A stretch of DNA of 23,418 nt from Candidatus Baldrarchaeum yapensis (GCA_016840465.1 JAEOSH010000033.1:1-23418); one strand, 5' to 3'; shown: positions 3,717-22,883, counted from the first letter of the stretch. The notes: generated from the letters alone by a model not told the origin. A program made the numbers and translations.

Positions 3717-4532
3717 TCAGTAACAGAAATCGCACATGATACCATATTTTTGACATAGAAGGGAAATTTTCTTTTTCAGGTTTCCGAAGTACTCGCGGTC
3801 ATCTCCGAAGAGTATCCTTCTATACTTCTCAAGAAGGTGAGGGTAGTGGTCTCTCAGGGAGGAAGCGATAGTCTCCCAGTTGCCGTACTTAATTCTAAGC
3901 TTATCGACCATTATTTCCCTCACGCCAACATCCTTCATTGTTTTAACGAAATCCTCGAGATCGTGATCGCTGAGAAAGGGTAGCACCGGTCCGAAGAATA
4001 CATAGGTTGGTATGTTCTCGTCACTTAGAGTCTTTAATGCATCCAACCTCTTGCTTACTGGAGCCGCGCCTGGCTCGAACACCATTCTCACACGCTCATC
4101 AAGTGTCACGATCGTGAAGCCGACCTCGACCTCGTTGAATCGTTTAAGCACATCTACATCACGTACGACGAGTGATGATTTAGTCAATATCGATACAGGG
4201 AAATTCTTCCTTGCAAGAATCTCCAGAATTGTGCGCGTAATTCCATATTTTTCCTCAATTGGTTGATAAGGATCCGTCACGCTACTCAGCAACACGATCC
4301 CCCTCTTTGCGGACCTCAGGTCTTTCATTAGGACTCTTGGCGCGTTTATCTTCACATAAACGAAAGAGCCCCATTCGCTGGGGCCTCTGTTATGAAACTT
4401 TGCCATGAACCTCGCGTAACAGTATCGGCACCCGTGCATACACCCAACATAGGGGTTTATGGCATAATCTACTCCGTAAATCTTACTCCTACTCAGGACA
4501 GTCTTGCATGGGATCTCCTTCACTTCGACCAA
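3717..4532 (-). CDS. Radical SAM protein, spore photoproduct lyase (SplB)-like family
   Basis: INPYVGCMHGCRYCYAR carries CxxxCxxC; also SSVTDPYQPIE, ILTKS and FEPGA motifs typical of SplB-like proteins. Confidence 0.88.
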   Translation of the reverse strand: MVEVKEIPCKTVLSRSKIYGVDYAINPYVGCMHGCRYCYARFMAKFHNRGPSEWGSFVYVKINAPRVLMKDLRSAKRGIVLLSSVTDPYQPIEEKYGITRTILEILARKNFPVSILTKSSLVVRDVDVLKRFNEVEVGFTIVTLDERVRMVFEPGAAPVSKRLDALKTLSDENIPTYVFFGPVLPFLSDHDLEDFVKTMKDVGVREIMVDKLRIKYGNWETIASSLRDHYPHLLEKYRRILFGDDREYFGNLKKKISLLCQKYGIMCDFCY

Positions 4533-7946: not shown

Positions 7947-9104
7947 ATGCGGAAAGTGGCAATTGTCGGTGTCGGGCACTCAAAGTTCGGGGACAGAAAT
8001 GATGTTACGTTCTCAGAATTGGCATGGGAGTCCATGAAACCGGCACTGGAGGATGCAGGACTTACGCCAAAGGACATAGAGATGCTAGTTGTCGGCAACA
8101 CCGGAATGTGGTCAGAGGAAGGATTGCCTGCTGTCGTAATCGCTGATTATGCGGGAATGAGCGATGCTGCACTCATAAGGGTTGAAGCCGCATGCGCAAC
8201 CAGCAGTGCTGCGCTCAGAACTGCATATCATGCAATAGCGTCCGGTGAAGTTGACATTGCAATGGCTGTTGGTATAGAGAAAATGAGAGAGGTGGATACT
8301 CCGATCGTGGTTGAGCTTATCGGACGAGCGGGTTACTACTACTGGGAGTTTGAGAACTTCGGGTTCACATTTCCCGCGTACTATGCGCTTCATGCAACTG
8401 CCCATATGGCAAAGTATGGAACCACCGAGGAACAGCTTGCCATGGTTGCAGTAAAGAATCACAAGTATGCGGTTAATAACGAGTATGCTCAATTCAGAAG
8501 AGAGATAACTGTCGAAGATGTGCTCAAGTCGAGACCAATAGCCTGGCCTCTCAAGCTACTGGACTGTTGCCCCATCACCGATGGATCTGCAACCGCGATA
8601 CTGGCAGCAGAAGAAGTTGCAAAGAAGTTGACAGATACTCCCATCTGGATTGCTGCATGTGAGGCCGCTGGTGGCACAGCAAATCTCAGCAAGCGAGACA
8701 GTTATGTTGGACTAAGGGCAGCTGTTCTCGCCGCTCAAAAGGCGTACAAGAAGGCCAAGGTGGGACCAGATCAGATAGACGTCGCGAATGTGCATGATTG
8801 TTTCACGATCGCAGAAATAATGGCATATGAGGATCTCGGCTTCTGCAAGAAGGGTGAAGGAGGAAAGTTCATAGAGGAGGGTCAGTCCTACATTGGTGGA
8901 AAGATTCCAGTGAACGTTGACGGCGGCTTAAAGGCGAAGGGGCACCCCATAGGGGCCACAGGCACGTCGATGATCTTCCACCTGGTAGAGCAGCTAAGAG
9001 GAGAAGCACCAAACCAGGCGGACATAAAGCATGGGTACGCGCTTGCTCATAACGTTGGTGGAACTGGTCATTACTGCTATGTGACGATATTGAAGAGGGA
9101 TTGA
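7947..9104 (+). CDS. Archaeal thiolase (acetyl-CoA C-acetyltransferase, SCP2/HDCF type)
   Basis: Catalytic Cys in EAACATS, plus VHDCFTIAE and KGHPIGATG motifs; followed by a DUF35 gene. Confidence 0.93.
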   Translation: MRKVAIVGVGHSKFGDRNDVTFSELAWESMKPALEDAGLTPKDIEMLVVGNTGMWSEEGLPAVVIADYAGMSDAALIRVEAACATSSAALRTAYHAIASGEVDIAMAVGIEKMREVDTPIVVELIGRAGYYYWEFENFGFTFPAYYALHATAHMAKYGTTEEQLAMVAVKNHKYAVNNEYAQFRREITVEDVLKSRPIAWPLKLLDCCPITDGSATAILAAEEVAKKLTDTPIWIAACEAAGGTANLSKRDSYVGLRAAVLAAQKAYKKAKVGPDQIDVANVHDCFTIAEIMAYEDLGFCKKGEGGKFIEEGQSYIGGKIPVNVDGGLKAKGHPIGATGTSMIFHLVEQLRGEAPNQADIKHGYALAHNVGGTGHYCYVTILKRD

Positions 9105-9105
9105 G

Positions 9106-9573
9106 GTGATGGCGATGGCAGAAAAGGAAAAGCCCCCAACTTTCAGGTCTAGGCCTCTCACGCTGATTTACAATTTGCCATACGGTAAGGTTGCGAAGTT
9201 CTGGGAGGCATTAAAGGAGGGAAAAGTTATAACGACGAAGTGCAAGAAGTGTGGCAAAGTCTACTTCCCGCCGCAGATGGACTGCCCGCAATGCATGACT
9301 TCCGACATGGAGTGGATAGAACTCAGTGATGAGGCCGTGCTGGAGGCCTTCTCAATAGTCGTAGTTAGGCCTGCGTCATTTGAGAAGTACAACCCGTACA
9401 TTCTCGCGATAGGAAGACTCGTGCGCGAGGATGTAAAGATATCAACGTGGTTACTTGACGTAGATCCTATGGAGGCGGCGAAGGGCAAGGTTAAAGTTGG
9501 TATGAAACTGAAACTCGTGGTGAGAGAAGTAGATCCCGGAAGGCCGCTATACTACTTTGTTCCTGCCGAATAA
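9106..9573 (+). CDS. DUF35 (ChsH2-like) Zn-ribbon/OB-fold thiolase partner
   Basis: CKKCGKVYFPPQMDCPQC zinc ribbon followed by an OB fold; starts 1 nt after the thiolase stop with GAGGTG upstream. Confidence 0.92.
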   Translation: MMAMAEKEKPPTFRSRPLTLIYNLPYGKVAKFWEALKEGKVITTKCKKCGKVYFPPQMDCPQCMTSDMEWIELSDEAVLEAFSIVVVRPASFEKYNPYILAIGRLVREDVKISTWLLDVDPMEAAKGKVKVGMKLKLVVREVDPGRPLYYFVPAE

Positions 9574-9636: not shown

Positions 9637-12021
9637 TTAAAGCTTACGCATGTATCGCCGGATTATCTGATCCTGAACCTCTTTTGTCAATTCAACGAAG
9701 TAGGCGCTCCATCCCGCCACTCTCACGACGAGATCTCTATACCTTTCGGGGTTCTTCTGAGCCTCTATCAGTGTATTTACGTCCACGACGTTGAAGTGCA
9801 TGTGCATTCCGCCCATCTCAAAGTACGTCTTTATGAGCGCGGCGAGTTTTTCGGTACCTTCGTCTCCCGCAAACAGGTCTGGAGTTATCGTGACAGTGTA
9901 TGACACTCCATTGGGATACATGCTGAAATCTATTTTCGTAACGGATCTCATGGACGCCGTCAGACCCTTTCTCTCCGATCCGGATGCGGGGCTGACGCCG
10001 TTGCTGAGAGGCTCACCCGCCCTTCTTCCACTCGGCAGTGCTCCGACGAACCTTCCGAAGGGGACAAACGTTGTCATAGGATAAGCGCCGGGTATGAAGA
10101 TTCCCCCTCTGACGTTCCTGTGTTTCATAACCTCCTCACTATAAATCTTCGCGACCAACTTCGCATATTTATCCGCCTCATCGTCATCATTTCCGTATTT
10201 CGGACCTTCATTGAGAAGCATTTGCCTGAGATCCTCACGGTCCTTGAAGTTCGTCTTCAGTGCCTCCACTAACTCTTCCATGGTGATCTTCTTCTCCTTA
10301 AAGACGAATTTTTCTATCGCGGCCAGCGAATCAGCAACGTCGGCGAGGCCTACCATTTGCACTCCTATGAAGTTGTACTTTGCAGATCCGAGCGTGATGT
10401 CCTTTCCCTGTTCGAGAGGCCCGTCAACGCATAACGACAGTAGTGGTGTGGGTTTCACGACTTGATTTGCTATCTCTAGGCAGTTGCATCCCACACACAT
10501 ATGCTTCACGAAATATGCCACCTGTTTTCGGAAGGCTTCTATCACGTCGTCCATGGACTTGAAATTGCGAGGATCTCCCGTTTCCGGCCCCAGTTTTCTC
10601 CTCAACATAACGCTATACCCATTATGTAGCGCTAAATCGAGGCACAGCGCTATGTTGAAGAGCGCAGCATCGGAAGATGTGAAACTGTTGCCAAAGGGGG
10701 CGAATTCTACACATCCTATTGTCGAATAGTTTCTTGCTTCCTTTTCCGGAACTCCCAGCCTCGTCAGGGCCTTTATTATAACCTCATCGCCGAAAAGCGC
10801 AATATTGTTGACTCCCGACTTTATATACTCTGCTAGATACTTCAGAAACTCTGGTGACGTGTTCTTGTGCACCCTCACGTGAATATTGGGCTGACGCATC
10901 CGTACAAGCATCGCTGCATCCAAGAAAACGTAAGTCAGTTCGTTGACCGCGTCGTTTCCATTCTCATCCGTACCGCCAAGTGTTATCGACATGTTTGTTG
11001 GCTGTCCGGCAAAATACTCCATCACCATGCTGTTAAACAGAGGCACTAACTCGTTCGCCTTTATCAGAAAGCATGCAACGAGTTCCACCGCCTTATCTCT
11101 GTCCAGTATTCCTCGTTCCATATCCCTCACGTAATACGGATAGAGATACTGATCCACCCTGCCCATCGAAATTGCCTGCTCGTAATTCTCCTGATGCAAC
11201 GCAACCTGTGTCAGCCATACAAATTGCAACGCTTCATGAAACGTCTCGGGGGGATTCTCGGGGATCCTTTTACATATTCTCGAAATCTCTAATAATTCCT
11301 CCTTTCTTCTCTCGTCTTTTTCGGAATCTGCCAGCTCCTCCGCCTTTGCAGCATATCGCTTTCCGAACCTGATGACCGCCTCCGCTGCTATCCGTGCCGC
11401 CTTGTAGAACTGGGCCTTCTCGATATCCTCCGGCCCGCATTCCTCCATTTCTTCAAACTTTCTGATCTTTTCGCTCACAAGTTCGAGTATTCCCTTGAAG
11501 CCCGTTTTGAGAAGGCGGGGGTAGTTTATTGCGACATGGGAGATGCCCGCAATCTCGGTAAGCACAAATATGCTCGCAAGCCAGAAGAGTTCATTCGTCT
11601 TCCTGGGCATTATCGATGTTCCGTAGGCTTGGAGATTTCTGTTCATCCAGTACGGTGCAATTTCCTCCTTCAGGATTTTCGCGTCCTCATCAGTTATATC
11701 CAAGGGACATAGTTTTCTGTTTCTGACCGCGGGAACCTCGGGCAGAATGCTCAGTCCTATTCCCTCGGGATATACAATTGCGCCTGGAGGGTCGCTCACC
11801 ATGGTCCCGACTATCAGTTCGTCCGGCAGAATGTTAACTGAGATTTTGTCCAGCACGTTGGCGAGGGCGAGCGCTTGTCTGATCACCATTGGCTGCCCTT
11901 CGGTCTTCTTCATGGACTCGGTGTAGTACTTCGCCCTCTCTATGCATATCTTCGGCTTCTTCGATAACATTCTTTCTCTTAATCTTCTTATCCGCTCGAT
12001 GTTCACCACGGCTACCACCAT
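9637..12021 (-). CDS. pflD: Glycyl radical enzyme, Archaeoglobus PFL2 (PflD)-type; substrate unknown
   Basis: C-terminal glycyl loop VRVAGWSAYF and single-Cys loop GCVEF. TEIAGISHVA, HQENYEQAISMGR, PFGNSFTSSDAAL and YPMTT match my recollection of A. fulgidus PFL2. Confidence 0.9.
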   Translation of the reverse strand: MVVAVVNIERIRRLRERMLSKKPKICIERAKYYTESMKKTEGQPMVIRQALALANVLDKISVNILPDELIVGTMVSDPPGAIVYPEGIGLSILPEVPAVRNRKLCPLDITDEDAKILKEEIAPYWMNRNLQAYGTSIMPRKTNELFWLASIFVLTEIAGISHVAINYPRLLKTGFKGILELVSEKIRKFEEMEECGPEDIEKAQFYKAARIAAEAVIRFGKRYAAKAEELADSEKDERRKEELLEISRICKRIPENPPETFHEALQFVWLTQVALHQENYEQAISMGRVDQYLYPYYVRDMERGILDRDKAVELVACFLIKANELVPLFNSMVMEYFAGQPTNMSITLGGTDENGNDAVNELTYVFLDAAMLVRMRQPNIHVRVHKNTSPEFLKYLAEYIKSGVNNIALFGDEVIIKALTRLGVPEKEARNYSTIGCVEFAPFGNSFTSSDAALFNIALCLDLALHNGYSVMLRRKLGPETGDPRNFKSMDDVIEAFRKQVAYFVKHMCVGCNCLEIANQVVKPTPLLSLCVDGPLEQGKDITLGSAKYNFIGVQMVGLADVADSLAAIEKFVFKEKKITMEELVEALKTNFKDREDLRQMLLNEGPKYGNDDDEADKYAKLVAKIYSEEVMKHRNVRGGIFIPGAYPMTTFVPFGRFVGALPSGRRAGEPLSNGVSPASGSERKGLTASMRSVTKIDFSMYPNGVSYTVTITPDLFAGDEGTEKLAALIKTYFEMGGMHMHFNVVDVNTLIEAQKNPERYRDLVVRVAGWSAYFVELTKEVQDQIIRRYMRKL

Positions 12022-12918: not shown

Positions 12919-13174
12919 TTCCCGAAAATGTTACTTCTCACTTCGATCAGCACGCCATCATCAATCGGTAGCAATATTTCAAGATGGTATGCTAGAATAG
13001 CTTCTGCGAGGTTCTTCGGCAAATTATTGTTTGCATGATGACTATTGCAGTAATTGCCTCTTGTAATATTAATAAAATCATTCAGGGCATTTTTCTTCGC
13101 GAAAAGTGATTATTCGATTGTATTTTGGTCCTAAAACAAAATTCCGGAAGTCGTTGGGGCAATTATTTCCCGAA
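12919..13174. promoter_or_regulatory. Four TTCSSGAA palindromes, candidate operator sites
   Basis: TTCCCGAA 12919-12926, TTCGCGAA 13096-13103, TTCCGGAA 13142-13149 and TTCCCGAA 13167-13174; the last overlaps the BRE. Confidence 0.45.
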
Positions 13175-13185
13175 AGGTTTATAAG
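13171..13185 (+). promoter_or_regulatory. BRE-TATA promoter of the ABC/chelatase operon
   Basis: CGAAAG-G-TTTATAAG, 36-50 nt upstream of ATG 13221; AGGTG Shine-Dalgarno at 13209-13213. Confidence 0.62.
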
Positions 13186-13220
13186 CGCCACCGTTGTGAG
13201 GTTCCCCTAGGTGTTACTAA

Positions 13221-14306
13221 ATGTTCAAAAAGTGTTACAGAAGTGCGATGACCCGCCTTGAGGGAGTACTCATAATTGCCCTCATCGCCGTGAGCGTTGT
13301 GGCCGGTTACGCATGGTATATGGCGACGATGGCCCCTACGGTCTCTGCACGTCAGACAATTACGATTGTGGACAGTGCTGGAAGATACGTTACAGTTCCA
13401 TGGCCGGTTAAGCGCGTGGTTGCGCTGACAACTGATGCGGCGATGACTATTGTTGCCTTAGGAGCTAAGGATGTTATAGTTGGAATAACCAAGTATGCGG
13501 CCAGCGAGCCATGGGCCCCAAACGTAACGGTGGTGGGATCGAGTTTCAGTCCGAACATAGAGGCCATAGTTTCCGTGAAGCCCGATATTGTCATAACGTA
13601 TGTGAGGTGGCCGAAGCCTGAGGATCTTGAGGAGAAACTTGAGCCTTTCGGCATAAAGGTTGTTCGTCTCGATCTTTATAAGATTGAGACGCTGTTCTCC
13701 GAAGTAAAGCTACTGGGGCTTTTGCTCAACAGGACAGAGGAGACAGAAGCTCTGATAAACTACTGGAAGGGCGTTTACGAGAACATTACTAGTCGCGTGA
13801 GCGAATTGGCGCCGGAGAACAAGGTCAAGGTGTACTTTGAGACCTACACGGACTTCAAGGCGGTGGGTCCTGGTAGCGGGTGGGATCAGATTCTCAGGCT
13901 TGCCGGGGGCATAAACATTTACGCCGATGCTCCTGTCACGTATCCCGTTGTGACGTCTGAGGACGTGATAAATGAGAATCCTGAGGTGATACTCAAGGCC
14001 GTCTCGACCAGCAAGTTCGATCCCTACAATGCGACCGATGATACTCCACTGAAGCAGATCTGGGAGAGTATCGTTAACAGGTCCGGATGGAACCAGATAG
14101 ATGCCGTGAAAAACGGGCGTGTTTACATAATCTGCGCGGGTCTGCTCCATGATTCCTTTGGTCTCGTGGTGGAGCTTGCCTACATAGCAAAATTACTCTA
14201 CCCGAGCCTGTTTGCGGATCTGGATCCCAAAGAACTCCATAGACACTTCTTAGAGGACAATCTGGGGATCCCGTATGCTGGCATCTGGATATACCCGCAT
14301 GAGTAA
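13221..14306 (+). CDS. ABC transporter substrate-binding protein, cobalamin/siderophore/heme (BtuF/FecB-like) class
   Basis: TIVDSAGRYVTVPWPVKRVVAL, PNIEAIVSVKPDIVI, E..INENPEVI and W.QIDAVKNGRVY motifs; N-terminal membrane anchor. Confidence 0.9.
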   Translation: MFKKCYRSAMTRLEGVLIIALIAVSVVAGYAWYMATMAPTVSARQTITIVDSAGRYVTVPWPVKRVVALTTDAAMTIVALGAKDVIVGITKYAASEPWAPNVTVVGSSFSPNIEAIVSVKPDIVITYVRWPKPEDLEEKLEPFGIKVVRLDLYKIETLFSEVKLLGLLLNRTEETEALINYWKGVYENITSRVSELAPENKVKVYFETYTDFKAVGPGSGWDQILRLAGGINIYADAPVTYPVVTSEDVINENPEVILKAVSTSKFDPYNATDDTPLKQIWESIVNRSGWNQIDAVKNGRVYIICAGLLHDSFGLVVELAYIAKLLYPSLFADLDPKELHRHFLEDNLGIPYAGIWIYPHE

Positions 14307-15309
14307 GAGGCGAGTGTTCGTACTCATGTTACTCGTCCTAGCCCTCCCTCTCATTGTTTTTATTTCCATGAGTGTGGGGGTCCTGCCAGTTAGTCCTCTC
14401 GGTCTCATACTGGCCAGTTTAAGTCCAAATCATGAGGTCAACCCGGTGGCGTGGGCGGTCATTTGGTACCTGCGACTTCCAAGAGCACTTATGGCGGTGA
14501 TGGCCGGTGCGGTCTTAGCGATAGCAGGGGTGGTGCTTCAGGGTTCTTTGAGAAACCCCCTAGTCAGTCCGTTTACTCTTGGTGTGAGTTCCGGTGCGTC
14601 TTTCGGTGCGGCACTCGCAATAGTCCTCGGGGTAGGGATCGTCGGAATGGGAGCCTACTTGATCATGGCAAACGCGTTCGTATTTGCACTTCTGGCAACG
14701 TTCATAACGTTGGGGATTGCGCGTCTCAGGGGGATGACCGCCGAGTCCGTAATATTAGCCGGTATTGCCGTGATGTACATGTTTTCTGCGGGGGTGACCC
14801 TTCTTCAGTACGTGGCGCGGGAGTGGGAGTTAACCGAGTTGGTGTACTGGCTCATGGGGGATCTAAGTAAGGCTAGTTGGCACAGGCTCAGGTACACGGT
14901 TTTAGCGGTTATCGTCTGCATTCCGCTTTTCAAATTTGCATGGGATCTCAACGTGCTCATGATGGGTGATGATGCCGCCAAAAGCCTAGGGACGGATCCA
15001 TCCATGACGAGAGTTGCATGCGCGTGTCTGAGCGCATTGGCGGTATCCATAGTTGTCTGTATGACGGGGCCAATAGGCTTTATAGGCCTAATGGCGCCCC
15101 ATCTCGCAAGATTGGTTGTGGGATCCGACCACAGGTTTTTGATGCCAACTTCCGCCCTTATTGGGGCACTTCTCCTATCCACAGCGGACCTCGTTGCGAG
15201 AACCATCATGATGCCGCTCGAACTCCCGGTAGGAGTTGTGACGGCATTTTTCGGGGTTCCTCTCTTCGTCCATTTACTGCTTAGGACGAGGCGAGAGATA
15301 TGGCGGTGA
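14299..15309 (+). CDS. ABC transporter permease, FecCD/BtuC family
   Basis: LRLPRALMA, LQGSLRNPLVSPFTLGVSSGA and GPIGFIGLMAPHLAR. Likely ATG 14299; the ORF is open from 14275. Confidence 0.93.
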   Translation: MSKRRVFVLMLLVLALPLIVFISMSVGVLPVSPLGLILASLSPNHEVNPVAWAVIWYLRLPRALMAVMAGAVLAIAGVVLQGSLRNPLVSPFTLGVSSGASFGAALAIVLGVGIVGMGAYLIMANAFVFALLATFITLGIARLRGMTAESVILAGIAVMYMFSAGVTLLQYVAREWELTELVYWLMGDLSKASWHRLRYTVLAVIVCIPLFKFAWDLNVLMMGDDAAKSLGTDPSMTRVACACLSALAVSIVVCMTGPIGFIGLMAPHLARLVVGSDHRFLMPTSALIGALLLSTADLVARTIMMPLELPVGVVTAFFGVPLFVHLLLRTRREIWR

Positions 15310-16073
15310 AAATTGTGGTGAGGGATATTACCGTAAGTTATGGTAGCATTCGGGCGTTAGACGGTGTCAGTGTCGAGTTAGAAAGTGGCAAGATAACGTC
15401 CATAGTGGGTCCCAACGGGGCTGGCAAAACCACGTTACTGAAATGTATCAACGGTATAGTGAGGCCGAGTGCCGGCGTGGTGTTCCTAGATGGCATGGAT
15501 ATCCGGAAAATAAAGCAGATCAAGCTTGCGAGACGGATGGGACATGTTCCCCAACTGCCGCCACTACACCTTCCGCTTACCGTATTTGAAACGGTGGCCC
15601 TCGGAAGACGCCCCTATGTGAGTTGGGTGTTGAGCAAGAAAGACATAAGGACCGTTGAGGAGGCCATGAAGGCTGTAGGCATAGAACATCTTTCGGATCG
15701 CTATTTCGACGAGTTGAGTGGCGGAGAGAGGCAAAAAGTACTGATAGCCATGGCGTTAGCCCAAGAGCCGGAGGTTCTGCTTCTGGATGAGCCCACCAGC
15801 AATCTCGATATAAGACATCAGTTAGAGATACTCAACCTCATTCGGCGTTTGGCCCGTGAAAAGAATCTGACCGTGGTGATGGCGATACACGATCTTAACT
15901 TGGCCTCCAGGTTCTCGGACATTATGATAATGCTTAAGGATGGACGCATATTCGCCATCGGATCGCCACGTGAAGTTCTCACTCCGGAGAACATTAGAGA
16001 GGTTTACGGTGTGGAGGTTACCATTCTGACGAATCCGCATCTGCTAGTTGTGCCTATTGGGGTGGTACCATGA
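15300..16073 (+). CDS. ABC transporter ATP-binding subunit (FecE/BtuD-like)
   Basis: Walker A GPNGAGKTT, signature LSGGERQ, Walker B LLLDEP and H-loop AIHD. Confidence 0.95.
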   Translation: MAVKIVVRDITVSYGSIRALDGVSVELESGKITSIVGPNGAGKTTLLKCINGIVRPSAGVVFLDGMDIRKIKQIKLARRMGHVPQLPPLHLPLTVFETVALGRRPYVSWVLSKKDIRTVEEAMKAVGIEHLSDRYFDELSGGERQKVLIAMALAQEPEVLLLDEPTSNLDIRHQLEILNLIRRLAREKNLTVVMAIHDLNLASRFSDIMIMLKDGRIFAIGSPREVLTPENIREVYGVEVTILTNPHLLVVPIGVVP

Positions 16074-18454
16074 GGCTAACCTTCATAATCGGTTATGGCG
16101 GCTTCACCATAGGTGTGCTTTCCAAGCTGTTGGCCGAGAAGGCGAGAGATTTCGGATTCGAATACATTGTTGTAAGCGATAAGGTCTGCTCGGAGCATGT
16201 TGATTTTATAAGGCGTTCGGACGCTGTTTTTATCTACTCTAATGAACTCCCCGAGGACGTGGAGGATGCTATAAAGAAGGGTAATGCGAAACTCGTGATA
16301 GCCCTCTCCGATTCATGTTCTCATCTGACCAAAGCCAGTCCGGTTGTTGTTTCGAAGGCTTGGACTTTTTACAAGACCGGTGGCGAGGAGAATCTCAGAG
16401 CCCTTATACATCTCATATTGAGAGAGGTGGGCCTGTCTGTCGAGGTGCCAGAGTTAAAAGAGGTGCCATGGCACGGTATACTCCATCCCGATTTGGGGTT
16501 CTTCAACTCAACTCGAGAATACCTAAAAGCTTACCCATATGCTGATAGACCGCTGGTTGGCCTCCTGTTTTATAGAAATCAGGCCATATATGGTCAGTTA
16601 GGCTACATAAGAGCGTTGGTAATGGCCCTTGAGGGGGAGGGGCTGGGCGTCGTACCCGTTTTCACATACGGCTTCAAAGATGCTCTCCTTAACACTCCCA
16701 CCGCTGAGGATACCATAAGGGAGTTTTTCCTTATCGATGGAAAATCCGTGGTGGATATTGTTATAAACCTGACCTCTTTCTTCCTCCTCGACCACGGTCG
16801 TCGGGTCAAGAACTCCTCGGAGCGGTTTAAGGTAGCATCCGGCGTTCAGTTACTCAAGAAACTCGGTGTGCCAATAATAAGCGCCGTGGTTTCATTCCAC
16901 CAAAGCGTAGAAGAATGGCTCAGAGACGAAAGAGGCGTGGACTATCTGACTCAGGTTTATCGGATCATAATGCCCGAGGTGGACGGTCTAATAGAGCCTA
17001 TATTCGTGGCCGGCTCGAAAGTAAGTCCGGATGGCGTCAGGGTTTACGAGGCTTTTGAGGAGCATGCAAAATATTTGGCTCGCAGAATTAAAAGGTGGAT
17101 AAAACTCAGGCGCAAGAGGCCGGAAGAACGTAGAATTGCTATAATTCTCATAAACCCGCCGTGTAAGGGTCTCGAGGCAAGTTTGGCTGTTGGTCTCGGA
17201 CTAGACGTACCGGAAAGTGTGACAAGACTGCTACACAGGTTAAAAGAGTTGGGTTATAACGTGGGCGACCGCCTACCGAAGGATGGAAAAGAGTTCGTGA
17301 GGATGTTCATGGAAAGAAAGGCCATCAGTGAGTTTAGATGGACCTCTGTGGACGACATCGTTAGAAGCGGTGGCGCTGTTGCCTTTGTTGACGCTGACAC
17401 TTACATGCGTTGGTTTGAGGAACTTCCGTCAAATGTTAAGGAGAAAATGATTGCTGATTGGGGGCACCCACTTGATGTTTTGAGCGGAAGGGTGTCAAGG
17501 GAGCTTGTGGGCATGGTTTATGGCGGGAAGTTCGTTATACCCGGTATTCTCTTTGGTAATGTGTTCATAACCCCGCAACCCAAATACGGATGCGCGGGGC
17601 CAGTGTGTGATGGACGAGTATGCCGGATACTTCATGACCCCTCCATTGCGCCACCTCATCAGTGGTTAGCTGTTTATCGCTGGATAACACGTGTCTTCAA
17701 GGCCGATCTCGTGATACACTTCGGCACGCATGGCGCGTTGGAGTTCAGACCCGGAAAGGGCGTTGGCCTATCGCCATCCTGCTGGCCCGAAATAAGTATT
17801 GATGACGTTCCCCACCTCTACGTCTATGTGGTTTCAAACCCGATGGAGGGCGTTATAGCTAAACGGAGAAGCTATGCTGTCCTTGTAGATCACATGTACC
17901 CGCCAATGTGCAAGGCAGATGCACTGGATGAAATTGATACTCTCCTGAACCAGTATACTCATGCTAAGCAGTTAGGCGAGACGACAAGAGCCCAGGTTAT
18001 CTACGAGAAACTCTTGAAGGTGGCTAGAGAGAATAACATACCGCTGACGGAAGATGAACCGGATAAGACTGTGGAGGAAATTCACAGGTATGTGAGCGCT
18101 GTAAGGAATACGCAGATAGAGGCCGGCCTTCACGTCTTCGGACACCCACCTGAAGATCCAGATGTATTGGCGGAGCACGTAGCCACCATCATGGCCTTTG
18201 ACTCATATAACTGTCCATCCATAAGGCGCGTCTTAGCCGAGGTGCTAGGCCTCAACTACGATGACCTTAGGAGGAATTCAGATAGGTTGAACCAGTTAGG
18301 ACTCACGAATGGAGAGACTCTCGATCTGCTCCACAGGTTAGCCGTCCGTATGATAAAACGTCTTCTCGTCACCGATATAAATCCCCAGCGGCTCACATCA
18401 GATGTTATTCTTAAAATCCTAAAGGAGGAGTTGGAGGAGGTGCTTAAGTGTTAA
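16070..18454 (+). CDS. cobN: CobN/ChlH-family metal chelatase large subunit, N-terminal part
   Basis: GLGLDVPES, HFGTHGALEFRPGKG, EGVIAKRR, DHMYPP and GLHVFG are CobN/ChlH motifs. The protein ends before the PGPSG...LPTGRN block. Confidence 0.9.
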   Translation: MRLTFIIGYGGFTIGVLSKLLAEKARDFGFEYIVVSDKVCSEHVDFIRRSDAVFIYSNELPEDVEDAIKKGNAKLVIALSDSCSHLTKASPVVVSKAWTFYKTGGEENLRALIHLILREVGLSVEVPELKEVPWHGILHPDLGFFNSTREYLKAYPYADRPLVGLLFYRNQAIYGQLGYIRALVMALEGEGLGVVPVFTYGFKDALLNTPTAEDTIREFFLIDGKSVVDIVINLTSFFLLDHGRRVKNSSERFKVASGVQLLKKLGVPIISAVVSFHQSVEEWLRDERGVDYLTQVYRIIMPEVDGLIEPIFVAGSKVSPDGVRVYEAFEEHAKYLARRIKRWIKLRRKRPEERRIAIILINPPCKGLEASLAVGLGLDVPESVTRLLHRLKELGYNVGDRLPKDGKEFVRMFMERKAISEFRWTSVDDIVRSGGAVAFVDADTYMRWFEELPSNVKEKMIADWGHPLDVLSGRVSRELVGMVYGGKFVIPGILFGNVFITPQPKYGCAGPVCDGRVCRILHDPSIAPPHQWLAVYRWITRVFKADLVIHFGTHGALEFRPGKGVGLSPSCWPEISIDDVPHLYVYVVSNPMEGVIAKRRSYAVLVDHMYPPMCKADALDEIDTLLNQYTHAKQLGETTRAQVIYEKLLKVARENNIPLTEDEPDKTVEEIHRYVSAVRNTQIEAGLHVFGHPPEDPDVLAEHVATIMAFDSYNCPSIRRVLAEVLGLNYDDLRRNSDRLNQLGLTNGETLDLLHRLAVRMIKRLLVTDINPQRLTSDVILKILKEELEEVLKC

Positions 18455-19959
18455 GGACTTCGTTAAAACCGAGAGTTGAGAAGGTCGACGAGTTAGTAAA
18501 AGTTTTTAAAGTTGCGCTTGAGGTAGCTAAGCGGGTTAAGGATTGCAAATGCGAATTAGATGGGCTTTTGGCAGGTTTTAACGGCGCTTATATAGAGCCT
18601 GGGCCTTCCGGGGCGCTTACTAGGGGGAAAATAGATGTACTTCCCACAGGCAGGAACTTTTACGCTGTGAACCCGATGGCGATACCTACACCGGCTGCGT
18701 GGAAAGTAGGGATTGAAACGGCAGAGAAACTTATTAGGCACTATCTTGAGCGACATGGTCGGTACCCGGAGACCGTAGGTCAGGTTCTCTGGAGCATAGA
18801 TGGTTATAAGGCGGATGGGGAGCAGCTCGCTCAGATCCTTTACCTGTTTGGCACGAGACCTGTCTGGGCGTCCGATGGGTCCGTAAGAGGGATAGAGGTA
18901 ATTCCGCTTAAGGAGTTAGGGAGACCTAGAATAGATGTTGTGGTGAGGATAAGCGGTATCCTGAGAGATACTCTCCCTAATTACATCTATCTCATAGATG
19001 ATGCCGTCTCTAAAGTTGTCGCGTTAGATGAGCCACCTGAGATGAATTTTGTGAGAAAACACTACTTAGAACGTCTTGAGGAGCTTAAAAAACTTGGTGT
19101 GGGGCGCGAGGAGGAGGCCAGATGCAGGGTTTGGTGCAGTCCTCCGGGCACCTATGGGACGGGCGTGAACTACGCTGTTGAGGCATCAGCTTGGCGTTCA
19201 GGGGAAGATCTTGCCAAAGTATGGGTTCAGTGGAGTTGCTACATGTACACTCGTAACTCCTTTGGCAAGCCGAGCCCGGAAGCCCTCATAATGAGTTTAA
19301 AGACTGTTGATCTGGTCACAAGAAACCACATTAGTGATGAACATGATCCTTTCAACTGTTGTTGTTACTTCGCCTATCATGGTGGATTTTATAACACTGT
19401 CAAAAATCTGACGGGCAGAGAGGTAGAGGTAGTGGTAGTAGACACCAGAGACGTGAGTTTCACTGATGTGCGGACGATAAAGAACGAAATTGAAAGAATT
19501 GTTAGAGCTAAGCTCTTAAATCCAGCATGGATTGAGCGCATGAAAAGACATGGGTACCGCGGCGCTAGCGAATTTTCGAGGAAAATACTCCACCTGTATG
19601 GCTGGTCCGCCACGACTAATATGGTGGCTGACTGGGTATTTGACGAGATAGCTAAAACTTACGTCCTTGACGATGAGATGCGCCAGTGGTTTGAGCAGAA
19701 TAACATCTGGGCCCTAGAAGAGATAGCCAGGCGGCTTATAGAGGCGGCCGAGAGGGGATTATGGAAAACCTCAGCAGAGTTGCTTAAGAGGCTTAAAGAG
19801 GCTTATGCCGAAATAGAGGGCGTATTAGAGGAGACTATGGTGGGAGTGGGCGAGAGCGAAATCCAGGGTGGTACCATCAGGCTAATTTCGCCTGATGAGG
19901 TGGAAGTATGGAAGAAAAAGCTATCTGAGGTGGAAAGAGCGTGGAAGAGAGTAAAATAA
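18448..19959 (+). CDS. cobN: CobN/ChlH-family metal chelatase large subunit, C-terminal part
   Basis: [45 protein letters not shown] and [19 protein letters not shown] start with GGAGGTG 5 nt upstream; overlaps the N-part stop by 7 nt. Confidence 0.88.
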
Positions 19960-21911
19960 GCCAGGTTATGGAACGTAAGTTAATATTTCCCTTTACGGCT
20001 ATAGTGGGACAGGAGAAGGCGAAGCTGGCACTTCTTTGTTGTGCCGTTGATCCGACCATAGGGGGCGTCCTTCTTAGCGGAGAGAAGGGAACGGGCAAGT
20101 CAACTCTCGTGAGAGCCCTCTCGCAGGTATTACCCGAGATAGATGTCGTGAAGGGGTGTCCGTTTAACTGTAACCCGTACAATCCGCTAGAGATGTGTGA
20201 TAACTGCTATTATAGATTGCATTCTGGTGATAAATTGGAAGTTGTCAAGAGAAGAATGAGAGTTGTCGACCTACCGCTCAGCATTACCGTCGATAGGTTA
20301 GTAGGGACGCTTGACATCCGCAGAGTGCTTAAGGAAGGTATTAAGGCGCTTCAGCCGGGCCTACTAGCGGAGGCTAATAGGAACATACTTTACATAGACG
20401 AGGTCAATCTGCTTGACGATTACGTGGCTGATGTGCTCCTAGATGCCGCGGCGATGGGATGGAACATCATCGAGCGTGAGGGCATCTCGTTTAGGCACCC
20501 GGCACGCTTCATTCTGGTGGGCAGCATGAACCCCGAGGAGGGCGAACTCAGGCCGCAATTGCTGGATAGATTTGGTCTCTTTGTTAAGATAGAGCCCGTA
20601 AAGGATCTGGATGCAAGGGCAGAAATCGTGCGACGTGTTGAGGAATTTTATGCAGACCCTATTTCCTTTTATCGGCGATACGAGGATCGGGAGAGGGCTC
20701 TTAGGGATTCCATCATAAGGGCCAGAGAAATTCTCCGAGAGGTCGTTTTGGAGGATGATCTACTCAAACTACTGATAGAGACAATCATAAAGATGGGAAT
20801 AGGAACCCACAGAGCAGAAATAGTAACGGTAAAAACGGCTAAAGCCATAGCGGCTCTAAACGGTCGGAAAAAGGTGACGCTTGAGGATCTAGAGAAAGCC
20901 ATGGAACTCGCGCTTCCACATCGTTTAAAATCTAAGCCCTTCCAGCCACTTCCAAGGTCTTCTGAGATTCCGAGACCGTCTCCACCGAAACACGAGCATA
21001 AACATCATGACCATGGAGAAAATGCACATTCGGGGAGTCAGGCTTCACAGAAGCCAGAAAAGGGTCAGAATTCTCAAGGCAACTTCAATAATTGGTCGGT
21101 AGGCAATAGGGATCTTGTGTTCAGGGCCACTGACGTGGACGTGGATACGAGTTCTCTTGCACCCATAATAGGCGGTGGTGGATTTCCAAAAGGAAGAGGT
21201 TCAAGGGCTCATAGGCTTACAGTTATAGGCCATCCACACGGTTATCCGATTTCTTATACCCTCCCCAGAAAGCCCGATGAGTTGCACGATATCGACCTAG
21301 TAGCGAGCATAAACGCTGCTGCCATGCGCCTAAGGAGGCTTCCACTCGTTGTGGATGAAGAAGATATAAGGGTGAGGGTGAGAAAGTGCAGAGCACCGAG
21401 GCTTATAGCCATAGTTCTTGATTCAAGCGGCAGCATGGGCATATTAAAACGAATGAGCATCGCTAAGGGGATAGCCCAGAGACTTATCGAGGAATCTTAT
21501 GTGAGGCGTGACTTCATAACTCTTATTACCTTCAGGGGTCAGCAGGCCGAACTGACGGTCCCACCCACGAAGAGGTACGAGGATGTACTAAGGGCTTTGG
21601 ATGAATTGCCCACCGGGGGTCGTACCCCTTTACCAGCAGCGCTTCAGTCACTGTTAACGGTGGCGAGAATTTTCAGAATGAAGCATAGAGATGCGGCCGT
21701 AAAGGCTATTCTCATTACTGATGGCAAGGCCAATGTGCCACTTAATAGAAGTGTAGAGGAGGACATACGCGCCTTGGTCGGAGCTTTAACGAGAAACAAT
21801 ATAAAGCTCGAAATCTATGATACGAGGCCGCCATCGGACTTTGAACTGGCGCCATCCTACATAAACCTCATAGCCGAGCTTAGTGGGGCCAGCGTCCATC
21901 GTTACAATTAG
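19941..21911 (+). CDS. chlD: ChlD/BchD-type chelatase subunit: AAA+ (ChlI-like) domain, Pro/His-rich linker, vWA domain
   Basis: GEKGTGKS (Walker A), LYIDEVNLL (Walker B), [17 protein letters not shown]; vWA MIDAS DSSGS, TGGRTPL and ITDG. Alternative start ATG 19968. Confidence 0.9.
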
Positions 21912-21926
21912 GTCGAGGGAGTTTCT

Positions 21927-22883
21927 TTGGACGTTACGATCCTTCTTACGGGCTACGCCTATGCGGCCCTTATCATGGCGGTTTCATGTTTCTTTGGAGT
22001 TTTAATAGCCACTTTCTTAATGGAGGCAGAAGTGGCGGATAAAATCGGACGCGTCCTTATACCCCTGATAAGAGCGTCTCACCTGCCCGAGGAACTTTCG
22101 CTACCGGCAATTATGAGTCTGCTTGACAACAAGACTGCGCATTTGGTGGTGTCCTCTCTCAGGAAGGAGGAGAAAATCGGTGACTCTGTGGTCATAACAT
22201 ATAACTTGGTGACGAGGCCATTCACCACCGTTTCTATGCTAATTCGAACATCGTTGCCTGTGGCATTGGCGGCCCTAGGCCTATATGTGGGGCTATTCTA
22301 CGTAAGTCTGGTGATCGCCGCGGCGTTCATGTGCATGGTAGCGGGCACCATTTACGGACGCATTAAGCTAAAGCTTGTATCATCACTCCAGTTTAAAATA
22401 CCGATAAGCACTATCGATAAGCCCTCAAGAAGGGGGGCGTTTAGAGCTGCATTCAAAAAAGCCACAGCCATGGTGAGATTTGTCATGAAGAGATACCTTC
22501 TAGTGCTGGCCTTCATGATCTTCCTCACGTTAATCGGGTTTTTCGATTGGCTTGGTAGCATGATCGGCGCCTACACGAGAATGCTCGGGTTCTCTCCCGA
22601 GTTTGCCCTCCTACTTTCGGTTCGCTCGGTGGCGCCTACGGTAGGAATACTGATGGCCGGAGAAATGCTGAGAGTCGGTATGATAAGCGTGAGGGAGGCG
22701 CTTCTCGCCCTCATAATCGGAAGACTCATATTCCTGATAATCTTCGACTACCCGCGGCACGCTTTCCCCTTCTACTCCTCCATATATCCGTTAAAGTTGG
22801 CGGCCAAACTGGTCCTGATAGGCATTGTAGTTAACGCACTGGCCACTCCGATACTGGTAATCATCATTCTCCTCCTTACATGA
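21927..22883 (+). CDS. Polytopic membrane protein, nucleoside-recognition (Gate) domain-like
   Basis: 318 aa in two hydrophobic halves joined by a basic loop; 15 nt after chlD and co-oriented, so probably the last operon gene. Family call is tentative. Confidence 0.7.
   Translation: MDVTILLTGYAYAALIMAVSCFFGVLIATFLMEAEVADKIGRVLIPLIRASHLPEELSLPAIMSLLDNKTAHLVVSSLRKEEKIGDSVVITYNLVTRPFTTVSMLIRTSLPVALAALGLYVGLFYVSLVIAAAFMCMVAGTIYGRIKLKLVSSLQFKIPISTIDKPSRRGAFRAAFKKATAMVRFVMKRYLLVLAFMIFLTLIGFFDWLGSMIGAYTRMLGFSPEFALLLSVRSVAPTVGILMAGEMLRVGMISVREALLALIIGRLIFLIIFDYPRHAFPFYSSIYPLKLAAKLVLIGIVVNALATPILVIIILLLT

Follow-up and report, generated by a model that had tools for sequence, protein, structure and literature searches.

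We analysed a stretch of 23,418 nt from Candidatus Baldrarchaeum yapensis (GCA_016840465.1 JAEOSH010000033.1:1-23418), here called the window, which is the whole 23.4-kb contig C58 of assembly G000 (2.27 Mb, 96% complete). At positions 13221-22883 it carries seven open reading frames (ORFs), all in the same orientation on the plus strand, which encode an ATP-binding cassette (ABC) importer, a CobN-like chelatase large subunit in two pieces, a ChlD-type motor and a putative Gate-superfamily membrane protein. We tentatively favour the reading that this operon is a nickel-starvation system, which may import a metal chelate, probably a metallo-tetrapyrrole, and strip it of its metal. The reading draws on the gene content, on the absence of de novo pathways from the host genome, on a cysteine signature in the CobN-like subunit, on a conserved gene linkage and on the operator sequences.

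The earlier note on this DNA had proposed tetrapyrrole salvage or metal exchange and had named a full late-insertion corrin pathway in the genome as the finding that would speak against it. We looked for such a pathway and found none, nor any other tetrapyrrole pathway. G000 encodes no ALAD, no TP_methylase (PF00590), no CbiX and no CobS, and the window is, as had been noted, free of tetrapyrrole synthesis genes outside the operon as well. A closed, single-contig genome of 3.08 Mb from the same phylum (G026) likewise has neither ALAD nor TP_methylase, and the absence in G000 is thus not an artefact of an incomplete bin. Of the 22 proteins encoded in a 19-kb hem/cbi cluster of the Asgard genome G002, 16 had no homologue in G000; the matches comprised parts of energy-coupling factor (ECF) transporters, one aminotransferase and one weak match. 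No full-size CobQ/CbiP or CbiA amidase was found in G000, where weak GATase_3 matches lie in frames of 220-240 aa. Since the host has no tetrapyrrole pathway, the substrate of the chelatase must come from outside, and the enzyme probably acts on something imported. Both genomes encode several [NiFe] hydrogenase large subunits and lack methyl-coenzyme M reductase, which means that they need nickel but not F430. No ORF of G000 contains two or more CxxCH motifs, the mark of a candidate multi-haem c-type cytochrome. As a side observation, the lack of a PF00590 match in G000 and G026 also means that neither has a recognizable Dph5 diphthine synthase, an uncommon deficiency among archaea.

The N-terminal half of the CobN-like subunit (16070-18454; head, neck and domains III-IV) matches positions 1-664 of the PF02514 (CobN-Mg_chel) profile, and the C-terminal half (18448-19959; domains V-VI) positions 676-1088 of 1090, with E-values of 9e-176 and 9e-180. 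Together, the halves span the full-length profile of the class I chelatase large-subunit superfamily (CobN/ChlH/HmuS). The C-terminal half starts at a GTG behind GGAGGAGG. An identical break with both halves intact was found at locus L011 (793+507 aa) and in Thermodesulfatator (L050; 803+493 aa), and free-standing C-terminal halves start at the same point in L048, L052, L056, L057 and L059. The shared break and the GTG start argue that the split is genuine and not an assembly error. Compared with solved structures, the C-terminal half scored 353 bits against Mycobacterium tuberculosis CobN, 305 against Brucella CobN, 292 against ChlH and 213 against HmuS. The two halves stayed below the equivalog cut-offs of NF004646 (663+627 bits versus 1468) and TIGR02257 (353+441 versus 822).

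A maximum-likelihood tree of 74 C-terminal regions, among them no named HmuS sequence, resolved three clades. Clade A contains the window protein together with those of L011, G026 and L048 in a subclade of four (100% support), which shares a supported grouping with a 99%-supported clade of strict anaerobes: Sporomusa, Acetobacterium, Kuenenia, Thermodesulfobacteriota, Methanosarcina, Methanothrix (Methanosaeta), anaerobic methanotrophic archaea of group 1 (ANME-1) and Methanothermococcus. Clade B is specific to Asgard archaea and includes a paralogue of G000 on contig C12. Clade C comprises the canonical CobNs of Actinobacteria, Chloroflexi, Bacteroidota and Proteobacteria as well as the CobN encoded beside cbi genes in the Asgard genomes G014 and G002. 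Neither CobN-like gene of a Bacteroides metagenome-assembled genome (MAG) falls within the subclade of four. The window protein belongs to a distinct, Cys-rich clade, and by bit score it is further from HmuS than from CobN or ChlH.

Six cysteines, predicted from the alignment to line the active site, define clade A. Three of them belong to an insertion of five residues in the active-site gating loop (GCAGPVCDGRVC, CX4CX4C; 17588-17623), which has the consensus G-C-x-G-x-x-C-D-G-x-V-C and stands before the conserved ILHDP. The insertion is present in nearly all members of clade A and in none of clade B; the only outlier elsewhere is the second CobN-like gene of the Bacteroides MAG (L104). The other three form a CCC triad (19357-19365; N-C-C-C-Y in the window protein) at the position of DSDDY in clade C and DLDHYY in clade B. 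The middle cysteine of the triad (C305 of the C-terminal half) aligns with D1100 of Brucella CobN, which in the cryo-EM structure lies with H554 and E593 in an active site holding two Co2+ (bioRxiv 10.64898/2026.07.21.739949). In the alignment with HmuS, the third cysteine of the insertion falls on F502 and the histidine after it on H506, two residues of the beta5/alpha7 loop that are said to close over the haem edge (PMC12583661). Both motifs would thus fall within the catalytic cavity. HFGTHG, ALEF and NPMEG are conserved across the clades, and all three align with the ChlH positions mutated in 6yt0, 6ytn and 6ytj; the GTHG histidine and the equivalents of ChlH E625 and E660 are retained. 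The enzyme therefore appears to keep the class I catalytic core, with hard carboxylate ligands swapped for soft thiolates. Thiolates in place of carboxylates would suit an enzyme of strict anaerobes that handles Ni, Co or Fe(II) or carries an Fe-S cluster.

The clade B paralogue (C12:6947-12805; L009) is an unsplit protein of 1254 aa with a DLDHYYEF motif, encoded divergently from a ChlD-like gene (666 aa), with a nitroreductase-family gene and an MFS-PhoU_div fusion on either side. It likewise resides in a genome without tetrapyrrole synthesis. A third ChlD-like gene of G000 is located on C81.

Automatic family names call the window proteins a cobaltochelatase, which would suit an ordinary enzyme of a de novo late-insertion corrin pathway that merely lies beside a B12 importer. 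Such an arrangement exists in G014 and G002 (Asgard family f4; contig C11 of G002), where a ChlD-CobN-importer cluster adjoins ALAD and five or six TP_methylase genes. We rejected this adjacency as a sign of a biosynthetic role for the window operon, because the CobN concerned belongs to the canonical DSDDY-type clade and not to that of the window. With ALAD and TP_methylase missing from G000 and G026, CbiX missing from G000, and the window proteins below every equivalog cut-off, we consider an ordinary cobaltochelatase extremely improbable.

Predicted operator sequences point to a connection of the operon with nickel. The window contains exactly two copies of GTGTTAC, 21 nt apart, which bracket the ATG of the first gene and form a NikR-type double half-site, GTGTTAC-N14-GTGTTAC (13211-13238), downstream of a putative promoter with a TATA-like box (13178-13185; AAAGGTTTATAA context). 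NikR recognition sequences of the consensus GTGTTAC-N13/14-GTAACAC, and an everted variant, were derived in delta-proteobacteria (Rodionov et al. 2004; PMC545781). Perfect double half-sites (N13/14, any orientation) occur twice in G000, where ~0.07 are expected. The second, GTAACAC-N14-GTGTTAC on C3, is located 19 nt before a CbiM-PDGLE-CbiQ-CbiO nickel/cobalt ECF transporter operon, with AAAGGTTTATA as its promoter context, as at the window operon. NikR itself is encoded on C89 (ribbon-helix-helix domain plus NikR_C).

In G026, which also encodes NikR, the perfect palindrome GTGTTAC-N13-GTAACAC adjoins a TTTTATAA box, 19 nt before the start codon of the orthologous substrate-binding protein (SBP), its sole occurrence in 3.08 Mb. 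L011 has a perfect everted site and an inverted site with one mismatch between its split cobN and the Gate gene. These sites suggest that the operon is controlled by NikR. A NikR-type site with one mismatch was also seen 19 nt before an importer SBP in G014 (L046:7612-7639), though the CobN of that genome is of the canonical clade. Upstream of the window operon there are furthermore four TTCSSGAA palindromes (12919, 13096, 13142 and 13167; 12919-13174, no strand assigned), the only cluster of at least three within 300 bp in the 2.27 Mb of G000, which has 254 such sites in total (0.11 per kb). The orthologous operons in L045 and L011 have no such palindromes in front of them, and a second, lineage-specific regulator therefore probably acts at the window operon.

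An experimental hint is available from Methanothermobacter marburgensis, where CobN1 rises ~300-fold only under nickel limitation (PMC12350162). In the same condition the predicted transporter MTBMA_c10530 increases ~35-fold and the 105-kDa protein c10580 ~300-fold (PMC12350162); their genes flank three 'cobaltochelatase subunit-like' genes, MTBMA_c10550-70 (PMC12350162; PMC3087415).

Iron was also considered as the metal, in the form that haem is imported and relieved of its iron in the cytoplasm. Precedents are HmuS and BtuS; the SBP has weak similarity to IsdE and haem binders, and without candidates for multi-haem c-type cytochromes, haem could serve only as an iron source. HmuS is, however, the most distant solved relative of the window protein, its head-domain region could not be aligned, and a cysteine occupies the position of F502. 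The operator is of the nickel type, and a scan for Fur boxes (7-1-7 consensus, up to three mismatches; 18 loci plus the window) gave no convincing promoter site in any version of the operon and hence no support for iron control. We regard the harvest of haem iron as quite improbable.

The first three genes encode an SBP of cluster A-2 (BtuF/FhuD/FepB type) that carries a membrane anchor at its N terminus (13221-14306; Peripla_BP_2, 1e-31), a FecCD/BtuC-type permease (14275-15309; PF01032, 9.4e-85) and an ABC ATPase (15300-16073; ABC_tran, 2.9e-35). Lying in one operon, they form a type II ABC importer (BtuCD/FecCD). The best NCBIfam matches of the ATPase were corrinoid, haem and Fe-dicitrate ATPases, all scoring under their cut-offs. 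Ligands of cluster A-2 SBPs are chelates rather than free ions. A small nickel or cobalt metallophore might accordingly be the cargo, with CobN and ChlD using ATP to release or hand on the metal. The best solved relatives of the SBP are indeed siderophore-type cluster A-2 metal-chelate proteins (4mo9 and YiuA, 6b2x), with BtuF and haem binders scoring lower; control of the NikR type would also fit, and Helicobacter is known to take up Ni-histidine complexes through importers of the FecCD type. Yet every characterized member of the CobN/ChlH/HmuS superfamily binds a tetrapyrrole, and the residues of the tetrapyrrole cavity and its gating loop are conserved here, which makes a cargo other than a tetrapyrrole unlikely.

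The seven ORFs are joined, in order, by overlaps of 32, 10, 4, 7 and 19 nt and one gap of 15 nt. The gap limit of 15 nt given in the earlier note is borne out, but one overlap is longer than had been stated.

The ChlI/ChlD-type motor (19941-21911; BchI-like AAA+, 7.7e-125) has the domain order of ChlD/BchD medium subunits, namely AAA+, a His-rich linker and a C-terminal VWA. Pfam recognized AAA_lid_2, Mg_chelatase and VWA_2; Walker A (GEKGTGKS) and the Walker B DE are intact, and the VWA metal ion-dependent adhesion site reads DSSGS. Its scores were below the TIGR02442 and TIGR02031 cut-offs. No separate chlI gene was found in G000. A slippery heptamer, T_TTA_AAA (20924-20930), had been proposed to yield a ChlI-sized product from chlD. 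It was absent from all five homologous chlD genes compared, which included those of L011, G026, Kuenenia, ANME-1 and the C12 paralogue of G000, and with no conservation to support it the idea of a -1 frameshift was set aside. The His-rich linker was rejected as a nickel signature, as it is seen here and in ANME-1 only. Residues 73-90 of ChlD form an insert with four cysteines (CPFNC...CDNC) in the AAA+ module, which is kept in the ChlD-like proteins of all three CobN clades and resembles a zinc ribbon.

The seventh gene (21927-22883) encodes a two-repeat helical membrane protein of 318 aa. It had no Pfam match even at E 10. Its language-model neighbours were PF07670 (Gate) clusters (0.97), and the homologues in L050 and L054 pass the Pfam Gate cut-off, whereas the window protein itself has no match. 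The predicted fold (pLDDT 86.8) matched the uncharacterized Methanocaldococcus jannaschii proteins MJ1556 and MJ0880 with template modelling (TM) scores of 0.80-0.85. The closest characterized fold was the FeoB membrane domain (TM about 0.58), and a Foldseek search of the PDB returned weak matches (CNT, DASS and TRAP transporters; E 0.01 or worse). From its modelled fold, the protein is a predicted transporter. Its assignment to the Gate superfamily, made in the earlier note, thus agrees with the remote evidence of embedding, homologues and fold and is not matched by a direct profile hit.

A search of 5.8 billion proteins returned five relatives of this Gate protein, and a profile made from them detected homologues in 38 of 40 Methanococci genomes. 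In seven of the 20 Methanococci loci fetched, FecCD importers and/or CobN/ChlI/ChlD are encoded no more than 10 kb from the homologue, one of them having the order Gate-ChlD-ChlI / CobN-Gate. Gate homologues adjoin clade A cobN genes in L011, L050, L054, L061 and L069, but in none of ~80 loci of clades B and C. Overall, adjacency to clade A cobN was seen in Asgard archaea, ANME-1, Thermodesulfobacteriota, other Deltaproteobacteria and Methanococci. A homologue with 54% identity stands divergently beside nikR.

The linkage of importer and chelatase occurs in two gene orders in Asgard genomes and is widespread among methanogens and bacteria that live without oxygen. Of the three clades, clade A alone is repeatedly found beside FecCD importers, accompanied in bacteria by TonB receptors, and beside Gate proteins. 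The Thermodesulfatator locus encodes, in order, TonB receptor, SBP, permease, ATPase, CobN-N, CobN-C, ChlI, ChlD and Gate, which is the architecture of the window operon plus an outer-membrane receptor. In Kuenenia the order is TonB receptor, SBP, permease, ATPase, CobN, ChlD, ExbB, ExbD and TonB, and variants were found in Sporomusa, Acetobacterium, Desulfobacterales, Thermodesulfobacterium, ANME-1 and others. The coupling of chelatase and importer is conserved, with Gate as a recurrent partner, and it is not peculiar to this archaeon. G026 carries a matching SBP-permease-ATPase-CobN-ChlD operon with 54-65% identity in the chelatase subunits and 30-41% in the importer. The operon was not found in its closed congener G073; being present in one of two congeneric genomes, it is an accessory element that is easily gained or lost.

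In L011 (13669-14895) and L013, the Gate gene is followed at a distance of 3-4 kb by short Oxidored_nitro and NifH-like fragments. They are 47-48% identical to the NifH-like gene of the nitrogenase-like L-N-B reductase of G000 (C57) and may be remnants of a nitrogenase-like operon next to the chelatase genes. A link of the chelatase operon to this reductase was rejected, as nothing comparable is present near the G026 operon.

The same set of genes could also work in the forward direction. A metal-free macrocycle, such as a cobalt-free corrinoid or a porphyrin, would be imported, the Gate protein would supply the metal, and Co or Ni would be inserted. The closest characterized homologues are cobaltochelatases, the catalytic His/Glu/Glu residues are kept, the Gate fold resembles the FeoB membrane domain, and transporters for both 'substrates' in one operon would suit insertion. 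Moreover, the host depends on cobamides, which it salvages through a locus on C59 (18003-23389; L008) that encodes BtuF-BtuC-BtuD, a CobD-type aminotransferase, CbiB and CbiZ before it is truncated at the edge of the contig. The same locus provides a dedicated corrinoid importer elsewhere in the genome, which counts against such a role for the window operon, as do the lack of a full-size CobQ/CbiP or CbiA amidase that could complete an intermediate of the hydrogenobyrinate type, the lack of an F430-dependent enzyme in G000 and the replacement of the Co2+-ligand Asp by Cys. The operator, too, is NikR-type and not linked to B12: Rfam detected no cobalamin riboswitch before the chelatase-importer operon in any of nine bacterial versions, and in Acetobacterium such riboswitches precede neighbouring operons only. 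We consider a forward salvage chelatase doubtful, though it is, like the metallophore cargo, a serious rival and more likely than the harvest of haem iron.

In the nickel-starvation reading, NikR would occupy the double half-site over the first start codon as long as nickel is replete. Under nickel scarcity, the membrane-anchored SBP would capture a tightly chelated metal, and the FecCD permease and ATPase, judged by their families, would carry the chelate into the cytoplasm. The cargo would most likely be a metallo-tetrapyrrole, for example a nickel tetrapyrrole similar to F430 or a Ni-porphyrin. It would be bound by the two-piece CobN, with the His/Glu/Glu core kept and the active site lined by six cysteines, while the AAA+/VWA motor spends ATP and drives the distortion of the ligand. 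The metal would then pass to the thiolate site in a reversal of chelation, for which the action of HmuS on haem iron is the precedent. Removal appears to be the useful direction, because the host makes no tetrapyrrole, has no F430 enzyme and needs nickel for its [NiFe] hydrogenases. The Gate protein might, speculatively, dispose of the emptied ligand or move the free ion.

Several findings weigh against this reading. All residues required for insertion are kept, and the forward reaction is equally feasible chemically. HmuS, the sole proven dechelatase, is the most distant of the solved relatives (213 versus 353 bits), does without an ATP motor and acts outside the cytoplasm, and the nearest solved relatives of the SBP are siderophore-type. 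The window operator is a direct repeat with 11 of 14 matches to the inverted consensus and not a canonical palindrome; the NikR motif is itself a comparative-genomic prediction, and the sites reported here are predicted from sequence. A reversed control motif, CACAATG-N13/14-CATTGTG, occurs once in G026 and once in G073, which makes genome-wide rarity a weaker argument than the arithmetic suggests. A scan for NikR-type sites in the bacterial and Methanococci loci found none. Nor could CobN1, MTBMA_c10530 and c10580 of M. marburgensis be established as orthologues of the window genes.

A wider possibility, which we put forward as a conjecture that is clearly less likely than not and less likely than the nickel-starvation reading of the operon itself, is that strict anaerobes take nickel from environmental nickel tetrapyrroles or other tight chelates by running an ATP-driven, Cys-lined class I 'chelatase' in reverse. 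Such nickel piracy may extend to Asgard archaea, methanogens, ANME, sulfate reducers, acetogens and anammox bacteria, and the cysteine lining would possibly hold an Fe-S or Ni-thiolate centre. If true, trace metals would be acquired by a route not described before, archaeal CobN homologues would have their long-sought function, and there would be consequences for the trace-metal limitation of methanogenesis, methane oxidation and hydrogen metabolism in sulfidic sediments. The Nature 2025 study of nickel limitation gave no explanation for the ~300-fold rise of an archaeal CobN homologue. The host and its closed relative provide a natural control in this respect: since they make no tetrapyrrole and use no F430, biosynthetic readings are excluded and uptake-coupled metal handling is left.

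The coupling of class I chelatases or dechelatases to uptake was already known, and HmuS is a proven dechelatase. In the literature searched we found no description of the six-Cys clade, of its fixed partnership with FecCD importers and Gate proteins, of NikR-type operators at its operons or of its occurrence in hosts without tetrapyrrole synthesis. The six cysteines, nickel-type operators and recurrent partners make the question testable in cultured carriers (Sporomusa, Acetobacterium, Methanococcus and Methanosarcina).

The other genes of the window encode a major facilitator superfamily (MFS) transporter, a deacetylase, a radical SAM protein, a pyruvate formate-lyase (PFL)-like glycyl radical enzyme, a thiolase and a PIN/MazE pair. 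The glycyl radical enzyme (9637-12021; 794 aa) and the radical SAM protein (3717-4532), its possible activase, are both encoded upstream of the operon on the opposite strand, and a thiolase/DUF35 pair is located at 7947-9573. G000 encodes topoisomerase VI, and in a phylum-level search its kin behaved like one archaeal phylum.

Compared with the known cobaltochelatases (CobN-CobS-CobT and CobN-ChlI-ChlD), the system shares PF02514, the HFGTHG, ALEF and NPMEG motifs, an AAA+/VWA partner and, in M. tuberculosis CobN, its best solved match. It differs from the aerobic enzyme in that the host has no corrin pathway to provide hydrogenobyrinic acid a,c-diamide, the large subunit comes in two pieces, CCC replaces DSDDY, CX4CX4C is added, and the equivalog scores are below the cut-offs. 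Unlike the aerobic enzyme, it is joined to a FecCD importer and a predicted Gate transporter behind a nickel-type operator.

HmuS and BtuS (hmu operon; PDB 9d26) are likewise CobN homologues in an uptake operon of hosts that do not make the tetrapyrrole. HmuS removes iron from haem, which demonstrates that a CobN homologue can act as a dechelatase (PMC12583661); a role of CobN-like proteins from uptake loci in the salvage of metalloporphyrins had been proposed as early as 2003 (Rodionov et al., as cited in PMC6460266). The equivalent of H506 is kept in the window protein, whereas F502 is replaced by the third cysteine of the five-residue insertion. Only residues 271-686 and 933-1366 of HmuS align, and the haem site of the head and neck (Met-79, His-254) does not. 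HmuS is extracytoplasmic, relies on reductant and membranes instead of a ChlI/D motor, and has TonB-type partners; in place of HmuY/R/T/U/V, the window operon has an ABC importer and a ChlD motor, and its predicted NikR-type sites point to nickel rather than iron as the metal signal.

With NikR regulons, which typically govern ECF transporters of the NikMNQO type, the archaeon shares the half-sites at the window operon, its orthologues and CbiM/CbiQ/CbiO, as well as an encoded NikR. The genes behind the window operator, in contrast, are a FecCD importer and a class I chelatase and no known nickel transporter, and the half-sites are direct.

A further parallel is offered by the CobN homologues of methanogens and their relatives. 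The role of archaeal CobN homologues was called unclear in the HmuS study (EMBO J 2025; PMC12583661). Those of Methanosarcina, Methanothrix (Methanosaeta), ANME-1 and Methanococci belong to the same Cys-rich clade, and the methanogen genes share the FecCD importer, ChlI/D and Gate as neighbours, for example around MJ0871/MJ0880. These hosts make F430 and B12 themselves, and their chelatases could therefore have served biosynthesis; this archaeon can make neither, which removes that reading for its own enzyme.

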